From: Candidatus Alkanophaga volatiphilum
GTDB taxonomy: Archaea > Halobacteriota > Syntropharchaeia > Alkanophagales > B39-G2
Length of the DNA: 64,000 bases
Assembly: GCA_029259545.1 (NCBI GenBank)
Contig: JAPHEE010000001.1
Coordinates: forward strand, 40,474-104,473
Reading direction: 5' to 3'
This document shows positions 2,732-63,854 of this stretch, piece after piece (position 1 is the stretch's first letter; the number at the start of each line of letters is the position of its first letter). The notes under the pieces were generated by a model. That model was not told the origin of the DNA, did not search any database, and was given only the letters and a program-made list of their open reading frames with translations. Both the position numbers and the translations under genes were made by a program.

Positions 2732-3919
2732 ATGTATTACGTGGGGGAAGCTTTAGTAGGGGAGGAACCGGAGGTTGCGCACATAGATTTGATTATAGGG
2801 GAGAAATATGGACCGGTGGGCACGGCATTTGCGAATGCATTGAGTCAGCTTTCAGCAGGACACACCCCACTGCTTGCGGTGATACGACCCAACTTGCCCG
2901 TGAAACCCTCGACGCTCGTCGTGCCGAAGGTTACAGTGCGCAACATGGAAGACGCTGAGAAAATATTTGGGCCGGCGCAGAGCGCTGTTGCGAAGGCAGT
3001 GGCGGACGCTGTTGAGGAGGGTATTATTCCTGAGGACAAGGCAGAGGAACTCGTGATCATAGTGAGCGTCTTCATACATCCTAAAGCAAGGGATTACAAC
3101 AAGATATACAGGTATAATTACGGAGCGACGAAGCTTGCAATAAAGAGAGCTATGGAGGGCTTCCCGGATGTGAAGAAGGTTCTTTACGAAAAGGATAGAG
3201 CTCGCCACCCTCTCGTCGGGCTGAAGCAGACGAAGCTCTGGGACCCGCCGTATTTGCAGGTCGCGCTCGACATTCCCGACTGGGAGCGGATGCGGGCAGT
3301 CGTAGAGCAGCTGCCGAGGAGCGACCACCTCATCATTGAGGCAGGGACGCCTCTCATTAAGAAGTATGGGGTTACGATCGTCGAGAAAATAAAGGAGATA
3401 ATGCCAGAGACCTTCGTAGTTGCCGACCTAAAGGTTCTTGACACTGGAAACATCGAGACGAGACTCGTAGCTGACGCTGGCGCGGATGCCGTTGTGATTT
3501 CGGCATTAGCGCCGCTTAAGACCATAGAAAAGGCATTGGAGGAGGCTAAGAAGACTGGGATCTGTGCGGTGATAGACACTTTGAACGTTTCCGATCCTGT
3601 GGAGTTTGCGGAAATTTTAAGCATGAACGGCTTGATCCCTGATGTGATAGAGCTGCATCGTGCCATAGATCTGGAGGCTAACGAGGCTCACGCGTGGGGG
3701 GTCATCCCAAAGATCAAGGAGAAGCTGCGAGGGACGCTCGTAGCGGTCGCAGGCGGCATACGGGAGGAGAACGCCGCCGAGGCGCTGAGAGCCGGCGCGG
3801 ACATCCTCGTCGTCGGTAGAGGGATAACCAACGCAAAGGACGTAGAGGGGGCGTGTCGTCGCTTCTTGCGACTCATGAAGGAGGAAATAGACCAGTATCG
3901 GGTGATGACCGACTTTTAA
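2732..3919 (+). CDS. fae-hps: bifunctional formaldehyde-activating enzyme / 3-hexulose-6-phosphate synthase (Fae-Hps)
   Basis: The N-terminal Fae-like half reads [21 protein letters not shown]. The C-terminal half is an OMPDC-family Hps (LQVALD...ADLKVLD...VVGRGIT). Confidence 0.85.
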
Positions 3920-4103
3920 TCGGCAGGGGCAACTCGGCGGCGTTGCGGGACGCCGCCATCCTGCCGGATCTTCGGGGCGGCTTGAGGATGGGGCTCGCCG
4001 AGCGTCGCAGCGCCGACGCCCCGTAAGGCGCCGCCGAAGACGTGACTGCTGGCGTGAGGTGGAGACGCCCGAAGCTCGACGACAGCCGCCGCTGGCTGAG
4101 AAA

Positions 4104-4331
4104 TTTATCTTCCCGTTGCTTGCAAGACCCTGGGGATACAGGGGAGGTGGGTGGGAAACACTTAAATACTTTGCCAGATAGGCTATATTTTGCAGCCCAC
4201 TCCTTAGAGAGGGGTGGGATGCGGGGCTGTGCCGCCCCGAAGGGTCATACGCAGAGCTTAAGCTCCGGGCGAACACCCAACCTCGCAAGCTTCCACGCTG
4301 GAAGCCCCTTGCTAAGCGAGGGAGAGGTCGC
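4104..4331 (-). mobile_element. MITE-like structured interspersed repeat, copy D (diverged subtype shared with copy E)
   Basis: Its reverse complement aligns with copies A/B/C at the 5' end (GCGACCTCTCCCTCGCTTAGCAAGGGGCTTCC). It aligns with copy E at the 3' end (CCCCTGTATCCCCA..GGTCTTGCAAGCAACGGGAAGATAAA). Confidence 0.6.
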
Positions 4332-4888
4332 TTGAAATCCTCTCGGCTCCGGATCAACTCGGTTGGAGCGGATTTTGTTGCGGCATGGCAGTTTTCACGG
4401 GGCTCAGCCGGCAAGGGCTTCGCAGCCTGCCGGGCGACGGCTCACGCAACCCACCCTCATCCTGAAGTCGGAAGCTACCGATGGAAGCCGGGAGCACGTG
4501 CTAGGAGCGCCAAGCTGAGGCGGGGGCACCCTGCGTAACTTGTAGAGACTCAGCCGGCTGTGTCCGAGTCGCAGGTGCGGCGGCATGGCATCGGCGGTGG
4601 GGCGGGAACGCTCGCATCTTCGAGACTTCCTCCCGGGACTTTATAAAAGCAAAAGTCGCTGCACGTCACGTCACGAATGCGACCTATTATTATTCCTGCA
4701 AGACGCAAGCTGATGAATATCGGCACCGGCACAGCAAACGTCACGAGCCTCAGGCGAGCGCGCACGCACCTCCGCCCCATCAGCCTCTCGTGACGGAAAG
4801 CCCTTCGACCCCTATTTCTCCTGCCGTCCGGCACACTCCGGCGTCCGACGCATAAACAACCTTCTCACGACAGCGACCTTTTTATACT

Positions 4889-14858: not shown

Positions 14859-15544
14859 TCAGAGGTATTGCCATTTCTGCGGCTCGAAGTTGCCACGACC
14901 ACGGAGAATAGCTATGCCCTCGCCGCTAGCTAAGGGCGTGCCGTTTCGAACTTTTGCGAGGATGAACACGTCCGTGCCTTCGACGTGTGCGGTGCCATTG
15001 CCCTTGTGACCTCCTCCTCGCTTAGCAAGAGGCTTCTACCGGAAGCCTCGGGAGGTTAGGGAGTGTGCAGCACAAGCTGCGCCCCCCTTCGGGCTGAGCA
15101 CGCAGCCCTGACCGCAGGATATACCCACGGCCTCGTTGCAGACTTATATTCAGAGTATAAAAATTAACTACCTCCTACCAGCCCCCCATCCACCTCCCCT
15201 AATTCATCTCCGTCCTGTCGGACGGAGCCTTCTTAGCGACCGAAGGTAAATTTTCACGCAGCCGAACGTCCAGACGTTGCCGTCGCCTTCGACGCTTATC
15301 TGGAAGTTCTCTCCGGCGACGAGCAGCATCCCGACGCCCTTTAAGGTGACGTTGCCGGTGCCGAATAGCATGGCGGCGCGCCGCTGCCCTCGGCATAGAG
15401 CGTGCCGTTGCCGACCATTACTCTCTTAGCACCGAGAGGTTCGGGACCAGGGGGCGTCGGCCTCTCGTGGATGCCATTACTGACCGCCACGGCGGGCGCA
15501 GCGAACGCCACGAGCGTGCAGAGCGTCAATGCTATGATCCCCAC
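14859..15544 (-). pseudogene. secreted G-N-G-T repeat protein, frameshifted and interrupted by MITE copy A
   Basis: A signal peptide (MGIIALTLCTLVAFAAPAVA) is followed by GNGTLYAEGSG. A frame switch near 15390 gives FGTGNVTLKGVG...GDGNVWTFGCVK, which runs into the repeat. On the other side of the repeat the frame resumes as KGNGTAHVEGT...NGTPLASGEG. Confidence 0.55.
15006..15250 (+). mobile_element. MITE-like structured interspersed repeat, copy A (reference copy)
   Basis: 245 nt running GTGACCTCCTCC...GAAGGTAAA. The ends form imperfect terminal inverted repeats (ACCTCCTCCTCGCTTAGCAAG versus the reverse complement ACCTTCGGTCGCTAAGAAG). Near-identical copy C lies at 37725-37977. Confidence 0.7.
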
Positions 15545-23754: not shown

Positions 23755-23905
23755 TGGTAGTTAGCGGCATGGAACGCCGCTCGCGTTATGGATAGTGAGG
23801 ATGGGCTATGAGCGTTTTTAAGCGTCCTCGCTCAAAACGAACTCAAATCACCTGCACATCAACATGCACATCAAATTTTAAACTGCACTATTGTTGGTCT
23901 TTGAT

Positions 23906-25929
23906 CTTTCAATCCCACCTTGGTCTGATTTCTTCTCCTCAGGTGCGACCCGAATGATGTCGCCTATTTCTACCTTTCAATCCCACCTTGGTCTGATTTC
24001 TTCTTGCGAGTCCACGAGCGCTTGAACGAGTTCCGCAGGCTTTCAATCCCACCTTGGTCTGATTTCTTCGAGAACTACGTGCCGGCGTGGCTCGCTCTTG
24101 CGAACGCTTTCAATCCCACCTTGGTCTGATTTCTTCTTCTCCATCAGCTTCAAGGTCGAGGAGGACGAGCTCCTTTCAATCCCACCTTGGTCTGATTTCT
24201 TCGTCACTCCAGTTGCGAATTCCCCACGCGTGGAGCGGCTTTCAATCCCACCTTGGTCTGATTTCTTCCAAGCGCTATCGAGGACACAGAATCCCTTTGC
24301 CAGACTTTCAATCCCACCTTGGTCTGATTTCTTCTCGTTTACAGAGTTGCGAAGATCGAAGCGTGCTTGACTTTCAATCCCACCTTGGTCTGATTTCTTC
24401 GCGAAACGCTCAAGGAGGTCGCAAAGAAGTTCGGCGCTTTCAATCCCACCTTGGTCTGATTTCTTCGAAACGTGGAGAGGGCGTGCCACGTCAGGGCTGC
24501 GTCTTTCAATCCCACCTTGGTCTGATTTCTTCGGAATTACGAGGTTTCGGACTTGCTCGTCGGCATTCAAGCTTTCAATCCCACCTTGGTCTGATTTCTT
24601 CTCGCTCAGCGGCACGACGACACATCCGTCGTTCTCCCTGCTTTCAATCCCACCTTGGTCTGATTTCTTCGCATCGTCGGCGTGCACAGAGTGCCGTATC
24701 TGAACTTCTTTCAATCCCACCTTGGTCTGATTTCTTCCGTGATGGAGGACTACGAAAATGCAAGAATGCTCCCTTTCAATCCCACCTTGGTCTGATTTCT
24801 TCTACGATAGGGAGATGAAATCTCACCTACCATGACATTCTTTCAATCCCACCTTGGTCTGATTTCTTCTTATTCGTAAACATATCCTTCTTTGACCGCT
24901 ACTTTGCTTTCAATCCCACCTTGGTCTGATTTCTTCACTTTGACCCAACCCCTAAATCAACTGCACTTGACACTTTCAATCCCACCTTGGTCTGATTTCT
25001 TCATGATTGCATCCTCCGCCTGTCTTTCAGCATGATCACTTTCAATCCCACCTTGGTCTGATTTCTTCGAGGTGAGTGTGTTGGACAAGCTTGTCATCAT
25101 TCTCTTTCAATCCCACCTTGGTCTGATTTCTTCGAGTTCCTTCTGGGTAGGGTGAAAGCCGTAAAACACCCTTTCAATCCCACCTTGGTCTGATTTCTTC
25201 GGCGACTGGAGCCTCGTCGAAGTTCAGGAGCAGGTCGCTTTCAATCCCACCTTGGTCTGATTTCTTCTGGCGGAGCTGGCGGCAGTATGCTTCTATAACG
25301 TCCTTTCAATCCCACCTTGGTCTGATTTCTTCAAGGCTATCCCGAAGATGCCGAGCAGGATTCTTGCCGCTTTCAATCCCACCTTGGTCTGATTTCTTCT
25401 GGCTCGCCGACATGCCGCCAAGTGATAACCGATGCCTTTCAATCCCACCTTGGTCTGATTTCTTCCGGACCGAAACGCTCATGCTGATGCTTGACCGCAC
25501 CTTTCAATCCCACCTTGGTCTGATTTCTTCAAGCTTTACTAACGTATCTGCCGACACTAACCGACTCTTTCAATCCCACCTTGGTCTGATTTCTTCCTGC
25601 AAACAAGCAAGGCAGACACGATGTAGTTGCACCTTTCAATCCCACCTTGGTCTGATTTCTTCTCTTGTTGCGGTTTTACTGCTTTTCTCTCTAATCGTCT
25701 TTCAATCCCACCTTGGTCTGATTTCTTCGGACAAGCGGGTGCTTGCGTTCCTGCTGGCTCACGACTTTCAATCCCACCTTGGTCTGATTTCTTCACAAAA
25801 TAAGAGAGAACTTGTGGCGGTTAGACGAGAAAGCTTTCAATCCCACCTTGGTCTGATTTCTTCCCTCACAACCCTCGAAACCGTCAATCTAATTACGCTC
25901 TTTCAATCCCACCTTGGTCTGATTTCTTC
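23906..25929 (-). CRISPR. CRISPR array, 31 identical 30-nt repeats, 30 spacers of 35-39 nt
   Basis: The repeat CTTTCAATCCCACCTTGGTCTGATTTCTTC was located by hand at 31 positions. Its reverse complement ends in ATTGAAAG, the canonical 8-nt crRNA 5' handle. Transcription is therefore inferred on the minus strand, with the leader at the 25930 side. Confidence 0.95.
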
Positions 25930-26045
25930 AGGCGCGTTTCTTTTGCTCGTGCTTGGTTTGCGGTTATGCGGGGGCTCCATATAAAGCTTTTCACTCGCAT
26001 CGTCGGTTCCCGCCCCCATATATAAAGAACCTAGACTCTCTTCGC
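25930..26045 (-). promoter_or_regulatory. CRISPR leader with two TATA-like boxes
   Basis: The minus strand reads GGTTCTTTATATATGG ... AAGCTTTATATGG ... GCGCCT and then the first repeat. It is homologous to 62935-63041. Confidence 0.6.
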
Positions 26046-30731: not shown

Positions 30732-30831
30732 GAAGACGTCTCAGCAGACCTCGTGACCACTACAGTTAGTCCAAGAGGGGGTGCTGAAAAGAGAAAAGGG
30801 AAGACGTCTCAGCAGACCTCGTGACCACTAC
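30732..30831 (+). repeat. CRISPR-like mini-array: 2 x 32-nt direct repeat with a 36-nt spacer
   Basis: GAAGACGTCTCAGCAGACCTCGTGACCACTAC occurs at 30732-30763 and 30800-30831. The 68-nt period equals the period of the main array. An ATTTATAC TATA-like box lies ~45 nt upstream. Confidence 0.5.
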
Positions 30832-31049
30832 GGCTTCACCGTGAAAGGCACCTCCTTGCTTGGTCTTTCTGACCTGCCTCCGCCTAGGCGAGGTTCCCGA
30901 CACGGGACGGGCGGGCTTGCGGAGACGCATCGGCTCGGTCAGGAGCCGTCCGGTCAGCATTTAGCTGACCGAATCATCGAAAAATTAGGAGAGGGAATAA
31001 AATGTTTCGGGGGCTTCCTCCCCCTAGAGGCTTCCAGCCCGCAAGGAGT

Positions 31050-31250
31050 GTGACCTCCTCCCTCGCTCAGCAAGGGGCTTCCCGGGGGAGGTTGGGAGGT
31101 GTGCCGTGCCTCCGGCTCGGCACGCAGCCCCGCCGAAGGATATACCCACGGCTCGTTCCGAACTCACATTATCTTCGGAAAATTAACTGCCTCCAACCCC
31201 CTAATCATCCCGCCCCCTCAGGACGAGCCCTCTTAGCGACTGAAGGTAAA
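31050..31250 (+). mobile_element. MITE-like structured interspersed repeat, copy B (internally shortened)
   Basis: It shares the 5' end GTGACCTCCTCCCTCGCTCAGCAAGGGGCTTCC, the core GGATATACCCACGGC and the 3' end CTCTTAGCGACTGAAGGTAAA. Confidence 0.65.
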
Positions 31251-31534
31251 TCGATAGCTAGCCCCACAAAATGAACGAGGGCTAACCCGCATCTCTTAAG
31301 AATTATCGTCTCCCGCACAAGCCTCTGGTCGAAATCTTAACGGGCAAGGAAGCAGGCGACTTCAATGCTTATTTAGCATCACGTTGAGCAGCGGCGGTGT
31401 CGCAGACCGGTAATATCCCAGCGAATCCCCTATTGACGACACCATTGACGCCTCCCCGCAGGCTTCGAAAGTACCGCCCCTCCATTGCGGCTCCCTGCCT
31501 CCAGAGCTCATTTGGAGCAGAGTAGTGTATTACC

Positions 31535-31670
31535 TTTACAAAATGTCGCTACGAAAGCTCCCCACTTCAGTAGGGAGATGAAGTAGGGGTGGGTGGGAAA
31601 AGTTTTATACTTAAAACCTGAGGCGGGGAGGCTTAAAGTGAAGCCCCGCCTCCGGTCGGGAGAGGCTCAC
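31535..31670 (-). repeat. MITE-like repeat, partial copy I (3' module)
   Basis: The reverse complement reads AAGTATAAAACTTTTCCCACCCACCCCTACTTCATCTCCCTACTGAAGTGGGGAGCTTTCGTAGCGACATTTTGTAAA. This matches the 3' modules of copies A and C. Confidence 0.5.
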
Positions 31671-31800
31671 GATCCAGAGGCGCTCCGATTCATAAATGAA
31701 AACGCAGGTACTGACGATTGGTGGCCATAGGCGTCTTCAGCGCTTATTTTATTATCCCAAGCTCCAGCCTCGCCTCCAACCTTCCTCAGAACACCTTAAG

Positions 31801-34063: not shown

Positions 34064-34199
34064 CCATTTCGCTCTCCTCGTTGCCTGTGGCTGTTGTGCT
34101 CTTCATATGGCTTAGGTCTTAGTACCGAATAATAAAACGCGCAGCCACCGAGTTCAGAGGTTCTACACCCCGCTGCATGCAAGTGAAAAAGTAGGGTGG

Positions 34200-34348
34200 G
34201 GTGTGGCTCAGGACGAACCGCTCCCCTCCGCCGTCACGACGCCCTGCCCACACCGTATGGCTCGCTTCAATTCTCAGCTCCGCTCACATATAAAACCTTT
34301 TCCACTCCCCGATCCCCTCAAGGGGCTTTCTTAGCGACTTTCTGTAAA
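34200..34348 (+). repeat. MITE-like repeat, partial copy F (same subtype as G)
   Basis: Nearly identical to 37530-37664: CTCCCCTCCGCCGTCACGACGCCCTGCCCACACCGTATGGCTCGCTTCAATTCTCAGCTCCGCTCACATATAAAACC...CTTTCTTAGCGACTTTCTGTAAA. Confidence 0.65.
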
Positions 34349-34574
34349 AGTTTTTGGCTTCCGATGACATTTTGATGACGTATCGGAAGCCGTCAATCTC
34401 CATCACTCCGTTCGGAGCGACCTCATAGAAGGCATTGGGGCAGGCGGGAGCCCATCTGAGATCCGCCCACGCACGCCCATCAGCCCCTCGCCTCGCGCCC
34501 CTCCTCTCCTGTCGTCCTACCCGCCTCACCGACTCATGCGAAGGTCATCAAAACTCGGAGCTGTCGGCGAGCCC

Positions 34575-34811
34575 CTAATAGAGAGTTATATACTTGGATA
34601 TCTTGTCTGTGGAATCCACAACCCCGTACACTTCGAACCCTTCGCTTATTAGCACCTGCAAAGCCGTAGAGATTCCCCCTTCAAAGGATATTTGAACCGA
34701 GGCATAGTTTTGGACCATCTCTCTGAAACCAGGCATGTTCTTAAGCAGCTCGTAGAGTTTCAGCCATCGTTGTTCGTCCAACTTGCCTTCTAGGATTATA
34801 ACCTTGCCCAC
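34575..34811 (-). CDS. hypothetical protein
   Basis: 78 aa with a GTG start. No family recognised. Confidence 0.4.
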   Translation of the reverse strand: MGKVIILEGKLDEQRWLKLYELLKNMPGFREMVQNYASVQISFEGGISTALQVLISEGFEVYGVVDSTDKISKYITLY

Positions 34812-34825
34812 AAGACCACCAGAGT

Positions 34826-36057
34826 TTATTTGGCGACCTCCTCGTAAATACTTATCGTGTCTCTCGCTACTTTATCCCATGTAAACTGCGACAAAACTCT
34901 ATTTCTCGCGTTCTGTCCCATCTTCCTCCGCAATTCTTCATCCTTCAGGATTAAAACGACGAACTTCGCAATGTCGTTCGGATCGTCTGGATTTATGTGC
35001 GCACCGCAGATGCCGTCACCGCTCGGGATGACCTGCTCTCTAAGCCCCGACGTGCCCCTGGCGCCGACGACCACGGGCTTGGCCATCGCCATCGCCTCCG
35101 TGCACACTATGCCGAACGGCTCATTGATGGGAAGACGGCGACATCGCACGCCGCATAAAAGAGAATCCTTTCCGCCTCACTCACGTATCTGTTTACTAGT
35201 ATGACTCTGTTTGCTAGTTGCAGGCTTGAAATAAGGTGCCTCAGCAGGCCTTCTTGCTCGCCCACGCCGAGGATTACGAGCTTTGCGTTTGGCACCTCTT
35301 CAAGTATCATGGGCATTGCTCGCATGAGTGAGTCGGCGCCCTTTACCCAGGTGAGCCTGCCGACGAAAAGTATCATGAACTCATCGTCGCCGATGCCAAG
35401 ATGTGCTCTCAAGCCGGCTACTTCGTCTTTTTTCACCCGCGTGGGGTTGTATTTCTCAGGATCGATGCCGTTGTAAACAACTCTTATCTTCGACTCATCA
35501 TAGCCCAGCCTGACGAGCTCGTCCCGCATAGCATAGCTGACTGTGATGATGATCGTTGCGAACTCACCTGCGAGCTTTTCTATGGCTTTTATTGTTGAGG
35601 AGCCGTCGCCCGCCCTGCCTTGCTCTGTCGAGTGGACGTGGAAGATAAAAGGCTTTTTCAGAATCTCAGAGGCGATCATGCCTGCAGGCGCCGAGAGCCA
35701 GTCATGCGAGACTATCACGTCGAAACTCCGTTTTTCTTGCTCTACGAGCACGTTCACGAGCTTTGATGCCGAGAGAATGTTGTAGCAGAGCGTCTCTGCG
35801 AAGAACCGTCGCCCTTCGGGAGGCAACTTCGGACATCCTCGGGAACGATGAACGGTAAAATTTCGGCAAGATCCACAAGAATAGGCCTGTGGACCTCGAT
35901 GCCGTCCCAAACGTCCCTTGTCGGCGCCCTGCCGACGTTCCGTGAAAAAACGGTGACATCGTGTCCCAGCCTCACAAGCTTCCTCGTCATCTCCATAGCA
36001 TAAGTCCCCAAGCCGCCCCTGAAGTGGGAATTCATCTACGAAGTGTGCTATTTTCAT
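34826..36057 (-). pseudogene. GT-B (family 1/4-like) glycosyltransferase with about three frameshifts
   Basis: The frames read MKIAHFVDEFPLQG, GGLGTYAMEMTRKLVRLGHDVTVFS..., ...HVHSTEQGR...VFPS and NEPFGIVCTEAMAMAKPVVV.... The FPS/NEPFG junction lacks one A in a short A run. Confidence 0.65.
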
Positions 36058-36103: not shown

Positions 36104-37486
36104 ATGTGTGGCGACAGCAAGCTTCCACGGGTACTCTTTGCGGGCACCGCTTCGGGGGTTGGGAAGACGCTTATTTGTGCGGGCTTGATCCTAGCGTTGC
36201 GGCGGCGTGGTTACCGCGTTCAGCCGTTCAAAGTAGGTCCTGATTACATAGATCCTGGATACCATACAAAAGCGGCAGGCGTGCCTTGTCGTAACCTCGA
36301 CAGTTTCCTGATGAATGAGGCAACCATCACAGAGATCTTCGTGAAACACGCAGCGAACGCCGATATATCGATTATCGAGGGTGTTAGAGGCCTTTATGAA
36401 GGTATCTCAGTGGACAGTGATGAAGGAAGCACTGCGCACATCGCTAAAATCCTGAAAACGCCTGTAATTTTGATCATTAACGCGAGGAGTATAACGAAAA
36501 GTGCCGCCGCTATCGTTTTAGGTTTCAAGAGCCTTGACCCAAATATTAAAATAGGAGGCGTGATCCTAAACAGCGTTTTCAATGAGGAACATCGCCGCAA
36601 GCTGGCAAGAGCGATCGAAAATTATGCAAAGGTGCCCGTTCTGGGAGCACTCCCGAGGAGTGATGCATTAAGTGTCGGAGAGAGGCATTTGGGCTTGCTT
36701 ACAGCTCTGGAGAACGTCATTGACCTGCGGCGTGTTGCGGACTTCGTAGAAGAACATATAGCTGTCGAAAAGATCGTGGAGCTTGCAGAGGTGGCGCCGC
36801 CGCTCTCGTCATCGGGCAATATCCACTCGTTACGAGCTTCGTCGACGTGCAACGGAGTACGGCTGGCAGTTGCCTACGACAATGCGTTTAACTTTTATTA
36901 TCAGGACTCGCTCGACGTGCTGAGAAGCTTAGGCTGCCGCATCCTCTTTTTCAGCCCGATGCAGGATGCGGCGTTGCCGGAGTGCGACGGTCTTTATCTC
37001 GGCGGCGGCTATCCTGAGGTCTTTGCGGCGGAGCTTTCTAAGAATAAAAGCATGCTACGGAGCGTTAAAAGGGCGGCGGAGGATGAAATGCCGGTGTATG
37101 CGGAGTGCGGCGGCTTGATATATCTCTCAAGGGCATTTGAGGGGGAGGGGCGTTTCGAATTTGTCGGCTTCCTTCCGTGCGAGGTGCGGATGCGGCGTCG
37201 CCACATAGGTTACACCGTGAACCAGATAATCTCAAGGACTATTTTAGGTGACAGTGGCATCCTGCGGGGGCACGAATTCCATTACACTGAGTGTGAGGTG
37301 TCTGACGACGTGCAGTTTGCATACAAAATGCTAAGAGGTAGCGGTATGGTCTCAAGGGGTGGAGAAAATTACGATGGGATCGTTCAAGGCGCGACGCTTG
37401 CCGCGTACACGCATCTTCATTTCGCAGCATGTCGCAAGGCTGCCGAAAACTTCGTTGCACGCTTGAGGTCATTTAGTAAGAAGTAA
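36104..37486 (+). CDS. cbiA: cobyrinate / Ni-sirohydrochlorin a,c-diamide synthase (CbiA/CfbB family)
   Basis: GTASGVGKT P-loop, FKVGPDYIDPGYH motif, and a C-terminal glutamine amidotransferase domain (YAECGG). Confidence 0.8.
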   Translation: MCGDSKLPRVLFAGTASGVGKTLICAGLILALRRRGYRVQPFKVGPDYIDPGYHTKAAGVPCRNLDSFLMNEATITEIFVKHAANADISIIEGVRGLYEGISVDSDEGSTAHIAKILKTPVILIINARSITKSAAAIVLGFKSLDPNIKIGGVILNSVFNEEHRRKLARAIENYAKVPVLGALPRSDALSVGERHLGLLTALENVIDLRRVADFVEEHIAVEKIVELAEVAPPLSSSGNIHSLRASSTCNGVRLAVAYDNAFNFYYQDSLDVLRSLGCRILFFSPMQDAALPECDGLYLGGGYPEVFAAELSKNKSMLRSVKRAAEDEMPVYAECGGLIYLSRAFEGEGRFEFVGFLPCEVRMRRRHIGYTVNQIISRTILGDSGILRGHEFHYTECEVSDDVQFAYKMLRGSGMVSRGGENYDGIVQGATLAAYTHLHFAACRKAAENFVARLRSFSKK

Positions 37487-37664
37487 CCTCCTGAGGGGCT
37501 TCCACGTGAAGCTGGGGGGCGTGCGGCACGAAGCTGCGCTCCCCTCCGGCGTCACGACGCCCTGCCCACACCGTATAGCTCGCTTCAATTCTCAGCTCCG
37601 CTCACATATAAAACCTTTTCACTCCCCAATCCCCTCAAGGGGTTTTCTTAGCGACTTTCTGTAA
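37485..37664 (+). repeat. MITE-like repeat, copy G (short subtype)
   Basis: It starts at the cbiA stop codon (TAACCTCCTGAGGGGCTTCCACGTGAAGC...). It carries the GTGCGGC/GCTGCGC hairpin and the 3' end TTTCTTAGCGACTTTCTGTAA. Confidence 0.6.
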
Positions 37665-37724
37665 GCCTGCGTTGTGATCGAATCGACAGCTGCCGCCTGT
37701 AGCAACGTCCATGCCGTAGAGCTT

Positions 37725-37977
37725 TTTACCTTCAGTCGCTAAGAAGGCTCCGCCCGTAAGGGCGGAGATGAATTAGGGGAGGAGGGTGGGGGCTGGTAGG
37801 AGGTAGTTAGTTTTTTATACTCTGAAGACAATGTAGACCCGAAGTGAGGCCGTGGGTATACCCTGCGGTCAGGGGCTGCGTGCTCAGCCCGAAGGGGAGT
37901 GCAGGTTCATCCTGCACGCTCCCCAACCTCCCATGCTTCCGGTGGGAGCCCCTTGCTGAGCGAGGGGAGGAGATCAC
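37725..37977 (-). mobile_element. MITE-like structured interspersed repeat, copy C (full length)
   Basis: Its reverse complement is colinear with copy A over the whole length. Substitutions are paired within the hairpin stems. Confidence 0.7.
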
Positions 37978-38000
37978 CTTCCACTCTTAAACGGTGAAGC

Positions 38001-39568: not shown

Positions 39569-39870
39569 CGCTCGCCTTTGGCGAGGGCTCCGCAAGGGGC
39601 ACCTCGCCCCCGCCGCCTCTCAGCGGTCGGCGTCATCGGGCGTCAGCCTCTGATAGGAGGTCAGCTTCTCCTCGATGAATCGAGAAGCTTGCCTCACAAT
39701 GTCCCGCCGGGACGTTCATCAGCCAATCAGGACGGCTGACTTCGCCCCTCATCGGGCTGGAAAGCTGGCAAAGCCGCTCCAGCCCACGAGAACAAACGCA
39801 TTCAACATTATAAATAATTTCCGCCAATTCCTCCCATGGTTAAACCATGGGCTTCCTTGGCGGTGGGGGT

Positions 39871-40109
39871 GTGAACTACCCTTCGCTTCGCAAGGGGCTG
39901 CGTGGGGAGTTTGGTCGTCGCCTGCCCGCAGGCGGTCACGCCGCCACTACCCGTTATCCTCACGGCTCACGGGCTACTTCAACCAGCCCCTACGGCTGCC
40001 CAGCCTTACGGCTGTTACGTCGTTACACCATACAACTTCAAAGTATTTAACTTACCACCCCCTCCCCTGTATCCCCATTATGGGGTCTTGCAAGCAACGG
40101 GATGATAAA
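39871..40109 (+). mobile_element. MITE-like structured interspersed repeat, copy E (diverged subtype shared with D)
   Basis: 5' end GTGAACTACCCTTCGCTTCGCAAGGGGC. Hairpin CGCCTGC/GCAGGCG. 3' end CCCCTGTATCCCCATTATGGGGTCTTGCAAGCAACGGGATGATAAA. Confidence 0.55.
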
Positions 40110-40247
40110 GAACGTTTCGGAGAAGTAGACTGAACTACTTCACTCTGCAGACGCCGGTGTTATGGCTCTGCGCAGACCAGGTTTAATTGCCGGTTCGCAC
40201 CTTGCGGCGGCATGGAGAAAAGAAAAGGGAATAATGTCCGAAGGGAG

Positions 40248-52752: not shown

Positions 52753-53068
52753 GGGTGCGGGCTAGCCCGGGGGGCTCGGCGTCCCCTGTGACCCGAAACC
52801 GTCGATATGCGGGGGGCGAAGCTCGAGGGCGGCTTCCGCTTGCCGTCGCGTCACGCAGGGCTTAACGGTGAGGCATCGTCCTGCGGGGCCGCCGTTGGCG
52901 TGGCGGCTGGCTGGAGGGCCGGTCGTGCGCCTTTGCCGCGGGCACCGGTTTAGGCCCGGAAGGGAGCAGACCCACCGTGGGCGGTCGGCGCTCGTGGGGT
53001 AGCGGTGCTGAGCGACGCCCTGTGGCGGCGTTGCGGCAATGAAGCCCACCGAGAGCGTGCCCGCACCC
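52753..53068 (+). ncRNA. signal recognition particle RNA (archaeal 7S RNA)
   Basis: 316 nt. 5' GGGTGCGGGC pairs with 3' GCCCGCACCC. The conserved helix-8 motif AGGCCCGGAAGGGAGCAG is present. A TTTATTT box lies ~25 nt upstream and a T-tract lies downstream. Confidence 0.85.
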
Positions 53069-60263: not shown

Positions 60264-60737
60264 ATGGAGAAAGCTGCGACCGAGCGGGCTGAGGACTACC
60301 TTGAGGTGATCTACGACCTGATCAGCAAGAAGGGGTATGCGAGGATCGTCGAGATAGCGGAGCGGTTGAACGTCCGCCCGCCGACAGTGACTGAGATGAT
60401 AAAGAAGCTGAGCGAAAAGGGATTGCTCGTTCACGAGAAGTACCGCGGCTTCACGCTCACCGAAGAGGGCGAAAGAATTGCAAAAGCCGTACAGAGGCGA
60501 CATGAGACGATTGCAAATTTTCTGATGATCCTTGGAGTGGACAAAGAGATTGCAGAACAGGATGCGTGTAAAATGGAGCATGACCTCCATCCGATGACGC
60601 TGGAGAGGTTCACGAAGTTCGTGGAATTCGTTCAGAACGCCCCACAGGACCCTGAATGGCTTGAACACTTTGAACACTACGTCAAAACTGGCGAGCACAA
60701 GTGTAAGGTTAGTGACCTCCTCTCCTCACTGAAGTGA
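60264..60737 (+). CDS. DtxR/MntR-family iron-dependent repressor
   Basis: AEDYLEVIYDL...IVEIAERLNVRPPTVTEMIKKL, plus the metal-site helix HETIANFL...CKMEH. Confidence 0.8.
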   Translation: MEKAATERAEDYLEVIYDLISKKGYARIVEIAERLNVRPPTVTEMIKKLSEKGLLVHEKYRGFTLTEEGERIAKAVQRRHETIANFLMILGVDKEIAEQDACKMEHDLHPMTLERFTKFVEFVQNAPQDPEWLEHFEHYVKTGEHKCKVSDLLSSLK

Positions 60738-61052
60738 GAGGCATCCTGAGGCTCGGTTTCCAGTTCATCCCCGCCCGCCGGCTCGGGGCGGAGCACGCGT
60801 CGAGCCTCGGCTCCGCCCGACCCTAGGCCGCACGCGGGCAGTAAACGATGATTATAAATACATTCCCGCCCGCCTCCCTGCCCTCCTTGAAAAAGTGGGA
60901 ATTAGCAGCAACAATATTCTAAACACGGAGCAGTGATGACATATAGTAGGAAATGAACCAGGCGCTCCTACCGCCCATACCGCGCCTTTTTCATGGACTA
61001 CGTTAAATGCATTTAAACACTGAAGATGAATCAACGCTACAAGGCGACGAGC

Positions 61053-63041: not shown

Positions 63042-63071
63042 GTAGAAATCAGACCCAGGTGGGATTGAAAT
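63042..63071 (+). CRISPR. solitary degenerate CRISPR repeat
   Basis: GTAGAAATCAGACCCAGGTGGGATTGAAAT differs at 3 of 30 positions from the reverse complement of the array repeat. No second repeat follows. Confidence 0.7.
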
Positions 63072-63556: not shown

Positions 63557-63854
63557 ATAGTGTTAAGCTCAAGAAGGTAAAAAATAGAAGGGTTTGTTTC
63601 ACGAAGCTCGATGAAGACACCCCTTGCGACCGTTCTGGTTCTCCCCTACTTTCGTAACTTTCATTAGTTCGTAGCGTTGCGGAGAACCTTCCCCCTTTGG
63701 GGCTTTCGGGGGAGGGGAACGGGGCTCCCCACATCTCCGAGTCTCCTCCCGGCTCCGCCCCTTCGGGCTGCCCTCCACCCCCACATCCGAGCGGAGCCCA
63801 TCTGACGCTTGAAACCTCCGCTTATAAAAGTTGCATCACAGAAGTTACCTTGCG

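Follow-up and report, generated by a model that had tools for sequence, protein, structure and literature searches.

Structured repeats in an archaeal genome as probable protein-less derivatives of IS200/IS605-type tnpB elements

Palindrome-associated transposable elements (PATEs) are protein-less derivatives of IS200/IS605 insertion sequences (ISs) whose left and right ends are fused. Those known include VNG_R0052 of Halobacterium salinarum (PMC4615843), PATE-like elements of Geobacillus stearothermophilus (PMC10055086) and the elements of Haloquadratum, in which the name was first given (PMC3119063). PATE-like elements often carry omega RNAs and need TnpB in trans (Meers et al., PMC10055086). 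In Halobacterium, sense RNAs that overlap tnpB were reported together with an expressed PATE-derived non-coding RNA (ncRNA) with fused left and right ends and with a motif in common with HgcC (Gomes-Filho et al., PMC4615843). HgcC RNAs start inside tnpB genes in Thermococcus kodakarensis, where two of them are unlinked to transposase genes (Jäger et al., PMC4247193). Here we analyse a family of structured repeats in a 64,000-nucleotide (nt) stretch of DNA from ‘Candidatus Alkanophaga volatiphilum’ (the window; coordinates given without a locus name refer to it). We conclude, at a probability of roughly four in five, that these repeats are PATE-like elements without a protein, derived by internal deletion from an archaeal IS200/IS605-type, tnpB-only (IS1341-like) IS. 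This kind of element is already described in the literature, and we claim no new class of RNA or transposon and no new mechanism. The local points of interest are the very high density of the elements, three subfamilies with different transposon-adjacent motifs (TAMs) side by side, and the fusion of a promoter to an RNA scaffold.

The assignment to IS200/IS605 rests on the homology of both ends to full-length tnpB elements, on sharp boundaries, on a target kept without duplication and on a covarying RNA. As in PATEs, there is no open reading frame (ORF), tnpB-type IS ends are joined, the hairpins are subterminal and the copies are multiple and intergenic; the right-end part corresponds to the tnpB-associated RNA, and reliance on TnpA and TnpB in trans is expected. 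Unlike the described PATEs, the repeats belong to another sequence family, have a thermophilic archaeon (~55% G+C) as host, fall into co-resident TTAC, TTAT and TTAG subfamilies with at least 10 copies in 64 kb, and keep the tnpB TATA box directly upstream of the scaffold. As in the TnpB omega RNA (right-end element RNA, reRNA) of IS200/IS605 and IS1341-type elements, the structured part begins in the 3' end of tnpB, stops at the right-end boundary and has the flank in the guide position, and its multi-helix scaffold covaries in the tnpB sense. Most copies are without tnpB and their RNA would therefore have to act in trans, unlike a tnpB-linked omega RNA. As in IS608 and ISDra2, insertion is 3' of a fixed tetranucleotide (TTAC, as in IS608) without duplication, the TAM equals the target and hairpins lie near both ends; unlike in those elements, the RuvC-II glutamate of TnpB is C-terminally shifted and a short inverted motif is common to both ends.

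The repeat family and its full-length tnpB relatives

The eight repeats listed in an earlier note on this stretch (copies A to G and I), which was made from the sequence alone, are a real family. An nhmmer profile of them recovered the same eight, and only these, in the window (E 5e-52 to 3e-25), with spans of 15003-15255 (A), 31042-31255 (B), 37718-37986 (C), 4097-4340 (D), 39862-40116 (E), 34172-34356 (F), 37494-37666 (G) and 31529-31683 (I). The looser relative that the note placed at 63690-63830 is not a member, as neither this profile nor a covariance model detects it. BLAST between the copies gave 68-96% pairwise identity with many indels, and a 20-base family signature has 5 matches in the window vs 0 in 100 shuffles. 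Two extra relatives lie beyond the eight, at 60712-60918 (minus strand) and 30869-30978 (minus strand), and the density is at least 10 copies per 64 kb. The viral contigs searched for the family held 0 copies.

Relatives outside the window connect the family to tnpB. A scan of genomes with a 19-base motif returned 26 chance matches and one real relative, an archaeal metagenome-assembled genome (MAG; locus L009) in which 1.1 kb separates the two repeat halves and holds, on the opposite strand, a tnpB with an internal deletion. The N-terminal 189 residues and the C-terminal ‘CRKCG...NADVNGALN’ motif remain of this tnpB, and the locus is an intermediate with an internally deleted gene. A metagenome scan yielded 35 loci, many with further copies; 5 of the 35 are the window's organism at 96-99% identity. 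In one locus, L040, a 347-residue TnpB (PF07282, E 5e-22) is directly followed by the reverse complement of the ‘5' half’ of the repeat. A protein search then gave 265 relatives, whose contigs supplied full-length elements. The few relatives with a source name are named ‘RNA-guided endonuclease InsQ/TnpB family protein’ and come from Thermococcus, Ca. Alkanophaga, Hadarchaeota, Archaeoglobaceae and Asgard MAGs.

The earlier note had taken the copies for non-autonomous transposon derivatives and proposed a search for a full-length element with the same ends. Both ideas hold, since the same ends flank tnpB in full-length elements, most clearly in L064 and, for a sister subfamily, in L040, L063 and L065; what these elements encode is an RNA-guided nuclease, TnpB, not a transposase. 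In L064, TTAC is followed by a left end (25-105) that is laid out almost as in copies A and C and to which the profile of the mini-element left ends aligns at E 3e-14. The ATG of tnpB (124-1212; protein P0030, PF07282) has a TATA box 26 nt before it, and the right end (1087-1229), which finishes GGAGGTCAC, matches the mini-element right-end profile (E 1.3e-23). tnpB followed by the same right end was also found in L040, L063, L065, L042 and L032, and L040, L063 and L065 are full-length elements of the TTAG subfamily with both ends. The anatomy of L064 implies that the window repeats are this IS minus everything between the promoter/start-codon region and about the last 45 codons. In the mini-elements, AACGAGCCGTGGGCTATATG...CCCGAAGGGGAGCG...CACACTCCCCAACC still codes for the C-terminal tail of TnpB, KRAVGYM...PEGER...HTPQP. 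Tetranucleotide composition of the tnpB contigs L040 and L032 correlates with that of the window at r 0.95-0.96 (known same-organism contigs, 0.91-0.97). Beside the full-length element, L064 carries the C/D-box small RNA sR55 (1667-1723, 63 bits); together with its 42% G+C this suggests an origin of the contig in the Thermococcales, the group in which HgcC was described.

Read in the tnpB sense, each copy consists of a target (TTAC, TTAT or TTAG), a left end, the last ~45 codons of tnpB and a right end running to GGTCAC. The left end of ~90 nt comprises a conserved motif, a hairpin of variable sequence and the tnpB promoter with an archaeal TATA box, and a short remnant of the tnpB start region separates it from the tnpB tail. 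In elements of 130-250 nt, the only detectable coding capacity is a TnpB tail remnant of ~39 residues. The parts are laid out in copy A as follows.

15006..15246, minus strand (the tnpB sense): copy A, a complete mini-element; target TTAC at 15247-15250
15006..15138, minus strand: omega-RNA scaffold and right end of copy A, finishing GGAGGTCAC at 15006; covariance model 125 bits; HgcC 20 bits, E 0.014
15156..15163, minus strand: TATA box of copy A, TTTTTATA in the tnpB sense, ~30 nt upstream of the first omega-RNA helix
15208..15227, minus strand: left-end hairpin of copy A, CTCCGTCC/GGACGGAG, 18 nt inside the TTAC junction

The TATA box of copy A is homologous to the tnpB promoter of L064 and presumably serves as a promoter; the guide of copy A is presumably the flank below 15006.

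The boundaries are sharp. Conservation begins right after TTAC (A, B, C, G, F and I) or TTAT (D and E) and ends at GGTCAC or GTTCAC on the right side. TTAC or TTAT precedes 35 of 35 distinct left ends, and TTAG precedes all four left ends of the third subfamily (K, L040, L063 and L065). The target/TAM tetranucleotide lies outside the element, and its identity goes by subfamily. We found no target-site duplication, the right-end flanks being unrelated to the left flank. The elements are thus not of the miniature inverted-repeat transposable element (MITE) type proposed earlier, as they insert 3' of TTAC, TTAT or TTAG without target duplication, in the manner of IS200/IS605. The left-end motif varies together with the target tetranucleotide (GTCGCTAAG / GTTGCTTGC / GTTGCTGCT), a co-change that is expected from IS608 if the left end reads the target by base contacts.

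Compensatory changes claimed for a 3' hairpin, which corresponds to the left-end hairpin, proved genuine. Its distance of 18 nt from the junction is fixed among 35 distinct copies, which show no fewer than eight different stem sequences at this place (for example CTCCGCCC/GGGCGGAG, CCCCT/AGGGG, CCCTG/CAGGG and CCCCAT/ATGGGG), and the wobble pairs of the hairpin fall on the tnpB-sense strand. The right-end hairpins are P5 and P6. The deletion junction is identical in copies at unrelated loci, which indicates that the copies amplified as mini-elements. It places the promoter directly before the scaffold, and the TATA box is kept in every copy, ~30 nt upstream of helix P1.

The terminal inverted repeats of ~25 nt described in the earlier note shrink to a motif of ~12 nt, TCGCT.AG.AAG, inverted near both ends of copies A-E. 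Shuffles reached the local alignment score of the inverted motif in 113/300 (A), 157/300 (B), 5/300 (C), 28/300 (D), 17/300 (E) and 223/300 (K) trials, so that the similarity is within the shuffle range in four of the six copies (A, B, D and K), with C and E marginal. At the termini, TTAC|C... and ...TCAC| do not form an inverted repeat, and the elements lack both features of a classical MITE, inverted repeats at the very ends and a target duplication. A position of copies inside broken genes, as had been supposed, was not confirmed: in-silico removal of A-E restores no convincing gene.

A covarying RNA of tnpB polarity

The last ~135 nt of the elements fold into six helices, P1-P6, arranged as three successive hairpins followed by a three-way junction that is closed by ACCUCC/GGAGGU beside the boundary. 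Overlap of this scaffold with the 3' end of tnpB is seen in L064, L040, L063 and L065, and the overlapping segment is kept in the mini-elements. Covariation was counted over 25 distinct right ends, mini and tnpB-linked, using a hand-built structure and a subfamily alignment. Standard pairs fill 95.1% of cells (86.0% in shuffles), 17 pairs are changed on both sides (9.5 in shuffles) and 70 cells hold double changes (21.7 in shuffles); none of 500 shuffles reached any of five measures, although relatedness alone can inflate covariation judged in this way. As a control, sliding the partners by 1-3 columns reduced paired cells to 39-55%. The counts bear out the earlier suggestion of selection on a conserved nucleic-acid structure. 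The compensatory changes noted for a central hairpin, which is helix P3c, are also genuine, with four of its five pairs changed on both sides. In P3c, P5, the left-end hairpin and, for the D type, P1, the entire helix has been swapped for another sequence with its pairing kept. With all subfamilies mixed in one MAFFT alignment, RNAalifold gave almost no predicted structure.

The strand on which the structure matters can be told from the alignment. G-U pairs occupy 90 cells vs 17 for A-C, and the alifold consensus energy is -28.0 kcal/mol in the sense orientation vs -16.2 kcal/mol in the antisense one, from which we conclude that the constraint acts on an RNA of tnpB polarity. The orientation that the earlier note called plus is therefore the antisense one, the structured RNA being on the opposite strand. 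Single copies fold more stably than their shuffles whichever strand is taken (z about -4.9 and -4.8 for copy A), and single-copy folding cannot tell which strand matters. In position, polarity and architecture, the structure is a TnpB omega RNA.

A search of Rfam gave no match at gathering scores, and to this extent the earlier statement that the repeats belong to no Rfam family stands. Below threshold it does not, as the right-end part matches RF00062 (HgcC), which aligns over its full length, on the tnpB-sense strand, and reaches ~13 nt into the guide (gathering score 50 bits). The best match is in the Thermococcales-like contig L064 (38.9 bits, E 4e-7); seven loci score 25-39 bits, and window copies score 20, 22.2, 23.7 and 28.2 bits. 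With scores under 50 bits, the repeats are at most distant relatives outside the curated family. The models for haloarchaeal sense overlapping transcripts (sotRNAs; RF02656 and RF02657) did not match. The class of RNA or transposon, which had seemed unknown, is thus in substance one already described, the structure being related to HgcC and to PATE-derived ncRNAs (PMC4615843, PMC4247193, PMC10055086).

Proposed mechanism and alternative explanations

From its place ~30 nt upstream of P1, the left-end TATA box would drive an omega RNA with the flank beyond GGTCAC as guide. In the mechanism that we propose, the left-end promoter would directly transcribe the omega RNA plus 16-20 nt of flank, and TnpB from full-length copies elsewhere in the genome would load the mini-element RNAs in trans; L040 and L032, with their window-like composition, would be a possible source of this TnpB. 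The loaded TnpB might then cut the empty site, made up of TAM and guide, which excision would restore, and recombinational repair could re-copy the element, giving homing and retention. Movement of the mini-elements as single strands would depend on a Y1 TnpA encoded elsewhere, acting via the left- and right-end hairpins.

For the nuclease, the TnpB clade concerned (relatives P0001-P0103; L040 7105-8148) has Gly at the canonical RuvC-II Glu position (‘IAIGDL/IGNL’) in 12/12 aligned members, a position that aligns to the Glu of Cas12f structures, and its RuvC-I reads D-hydrophobic-G, not DPG. We considered the clade as nuclease-dead on account of this Gly and set the idea aside, given an invariant Glu 7 residues before the zinc finger (E275), which is accompanied by invariant D146 and D310. 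A C-terminally shifted glutamate arrangement has been described for active TnpB/Fanzor enzymes (bioRxiv 10.1101/2023.08.09.552727). The D146/E275/D310 pattern is, at the level of sequence, compatible with an active nuclease.

Several observations weigh against an origin from IS200/IS605-type tnpB elements with a working omega RNA. No tnpB is present in the window, where tblastn with TnpB gives only the 39-residue tail remnant inside copy C; this agrees with the earlier statement that the window holds no transposase, as TnpA queries also found nothing. Extended to the window plus 65 loci (~0.5 Mb), tblastn with TnpA again found nothing, a weak negative for such queries and this amount of DNA, and tnpA was not seen with this TnpB clade in the four full-length loci examined. 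We found no clean empty site, and the strain differences are deletions or recombination, not precise excisions. The short inverted motif common to left and right ends is unusual for IS200/IS605. All HgcC scores lie under the Rfam gathering score, which leaves the repeats outside formal membership of RF00062. Finally, the scaffolds of I, F, K and B are reduced and may not yield a working omega RNA.

Some of these points would also suit inert decay products of full-length tnpB elements, whose structure is inherited and kept by recent copying or gene conversion, with no present function. Copies F, I, B and K are truncated or reduced, neither tnpB nor tnpA was found in the window, orthologous copies are 93.5-94.5% identical between strains against 98.3-99.3% for clean flanks, and relatedness alone can inflate shuffle-based covariation. 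We nevertheless consider decay unlikely. Compensatory double changes occur in 17 pairs and the slid-partner controls are far lower; G-U pairs are five-fold more numerous than A-C pairs; the four helices that were replaced entirely (P1 of the D type among them) still pair; one deletion junction, with the promoter directly before the scaffold, recurs at many loci; and the family is maintained in organisms whose G+C spans 42-55%.

More improbable still is domestication by the host, in which the copies would be HgcC-type small RNAs that play a cellular or regulatory part apart from homing, with TnpB as an RNA-guided binder or not needed. Halobacterium grew better when a PATE-derived RNA was overexpressed, and likewise with a sotRNA (PMC4615843), two HgcC RNAs of T. 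kodakarensis are unlinked to transposase genes (PMC4247193), and RuvC-II Glu is changed to Gly across the whole TnpB clade. However, the guides are local flanks, for which neither the window nor the loci offer a second TAM-adjacent match; the copies, which occupy unrelated loci, vary from strain to strain; and the clade retains, in E275, a shifted Glu such as has been described in active TnpB/Fanzor enzymes (10.1101/2023.08.09.552727). A classical MITE with ~25-nt terminal inverted repeats, a DDE-type transposase and structure on the strand first called plus has the ~12-nt motif inverted near both ends of A-E and the good folding of both strands in its favour, but can be dismissed, as in A, B, D and K the inverted similarity stays within the shuffle range, the termini are not inverted repeats, the target site is not duplicated, the gene carried by the full-length relatives is tnpB and not one for a DDE transposase, and the G-U/A-C asymmetry and alifold energies favour the opposite strand.

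Taking the repeats as PATE-like IS200/IS605 derivatives, we further suggest, tentatively and at somewhat less than even odds, that the mini-elements are self-contained guide-RNA genes in which a tnpB promoter is fused directly to a scaffold, with selection at the RNA level after loss of the protein and a few TnpBs serving many guides. Trans-acting guides with TTAC, TTAT and TTAG TAMs would each protect their own insertion site by homing. If this suggestion is true, the elements are a natural case in which guide RNAs outnumber and outlive their nuclease in an archaeon. A formerly unknown structured repeat can now be annotated as PATE-like IS200/IS605 mini-elements with TnpB omega RNAs. HgcC, long an orphan family, is thereby connected, through one of its distant branches, with the TnpB guide RNAs of another archaeal lineage. 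The locus suits two questions from the literature, namely the use of TnpB in trans by protein-less elements and the co-variation of the target motif (TTAC/TTAT/TTAG) with left-end sequence.

Further copies, strain differences and window context

The other copies in the window, and the parts delimited within them, are as follows.

31050..31246, minus strand: copy B, a complete mini-element with P3 and P5 shortened; TTAC 31247-31250; covariance model 64.8 bits
37729..37977, plus strand: copy C, a complete mini-element; TTAC 37725-37728
37842-37977, plus strand: omega-RNA scaffold of copy C; covariance model 131.9 bits; HgcC 28.2 bits
4109..4331, plus strand: copy D, TTAT subfamily; TTAT 4105-4108
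4190-4331, plus strand: omega-RNA scaffold of copy D, finishing GGTCGC; covariance model 49.5 bits
39871..40104, minus strand: copy E, TTAT subfamily; TTAT 40105-40108
39871-39980, minus strand: omega-RNA scaffold of copy E, finishing GTTCAC; covariance model 22.5 bits
37483..37660, minus strand: copy G, short TTAC subfamily; TTAC 37661-37664; right end finishing GGAGGTTAC; covariance model 38 bits
34172..34344, minus strand: copy F, G subfamily, truncated on the right-end side; TTAC 34345-34348; segment missing from strain L037
31539..31670, plus strand: copy I, strongly reduced to a left end, TATA box, one hairpin and GGCTCAC; TTAC 31535-31538
60712..60918, minus strand: copy K, TTAG subfamily; TTAG 60919-60922; finishing GGAGGTCAC
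30869..30978, minus strand: divergent structure resembling an omega RNA or HgcC, immediately beyond the right end of copy B; covariance model 28.6 bits, E 1e-4

The left end of copy K aligns with those of the tnpB-bearing L040, L063 and L065. The right end of copy G abuts or overlaps a CobQ-like ORF (36104-37486), whose stop codon TAA (37483-37486) falls within the last bases of the element (GGTTAC); the insertion may have replaced the native 3' end of the CobQ-like gene. This ORF of 460 amino acids was tried as a tnpB and rejected, as it is a CobQ-type amidotransferase. The divergent structure at 30869-30978 scores 23.7 bits against HgcC (E 0.0016); we found no recognisable left end and no adjacent protein gene there, and it sits ~40 nt before a pair of 32-nt repeats (30732-30831).

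The pair consists of two copies of a 32-nt sequence (minus strand GTAGTGGTCACGAGGTCTGCTGAGACGTCTTC) on either side of a unique segment of 36 nt. Strains L037 and L043 have a single copy of the 32-nt sequence and no 36-mer, so that the window has a 68-bp insertion, composed of new sequence plus a duplicated repeat, rather than a tandem duplication. With its 32+36 arrangement, the insertion has the period of the CRISPR array of the window, suggesting an off-target spacer integration. The 36-mer has no other match in the window, and parts of it 19-21 nt long have none in the loci or viral contigs. The array itself (23905-25950) holds 31 identical 30-nt repeats (CTTTCAATCCCACCTTGGTCTGATTTCTTC) at a period of 65-69; its repeat presumably resembles that of Archaeoglobus. 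A solitary variant repeat lies at 63045-63070 on the other strand. The array is preceded by genes for URO-D, an ARMT1-like protein and a tetrapyrrole methylase and followed by one for a ParA/Fer4 protein, with no cas genes among the ORFs checked beside it.

Strain comparisons show further changes at the elements. L037 (5512-5517) is without window positions 34203-34571, which comprise most of copy F and 225 bp with a hairpin and C/D-box-like motifs, and L043 (3827-3831) is without 34166-35741, so that copy F and part of a glycosyltransferase gene are gone. Orthologous copies are more divergent between strains (93.5-94.5% identity) than clean flanks (98.3-99.3%), which suggests conversion. L047 has two elements 2 kb apart (293-568 and 2538-2806), and L050 (4128-4406) has a single chimera bordered by the outer flanks of the two, as would be expected if copies had recombined and the intervening DNA had been deleted, or if the reverse had happened. 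In L051, at ~3400-3414, only 4 nt separate a right end (…GGTCAC) from a further left-end motif (GTCGCTAAGAGGCTCGTC) behind it, which suggests elements in tandem or nested in one another, TCAC perhaps serving as target.

The remainder of the window is that of a thermophilic archaeon of ~55% G+C, an assignment that its archaeal signal recognition particle RNA (52755-53066), a Fae-Hps fusion and the CRISPR repeat support; it also holds a G+C-rich tRNA, a MetRS ORF and ordinary metabolic genes.

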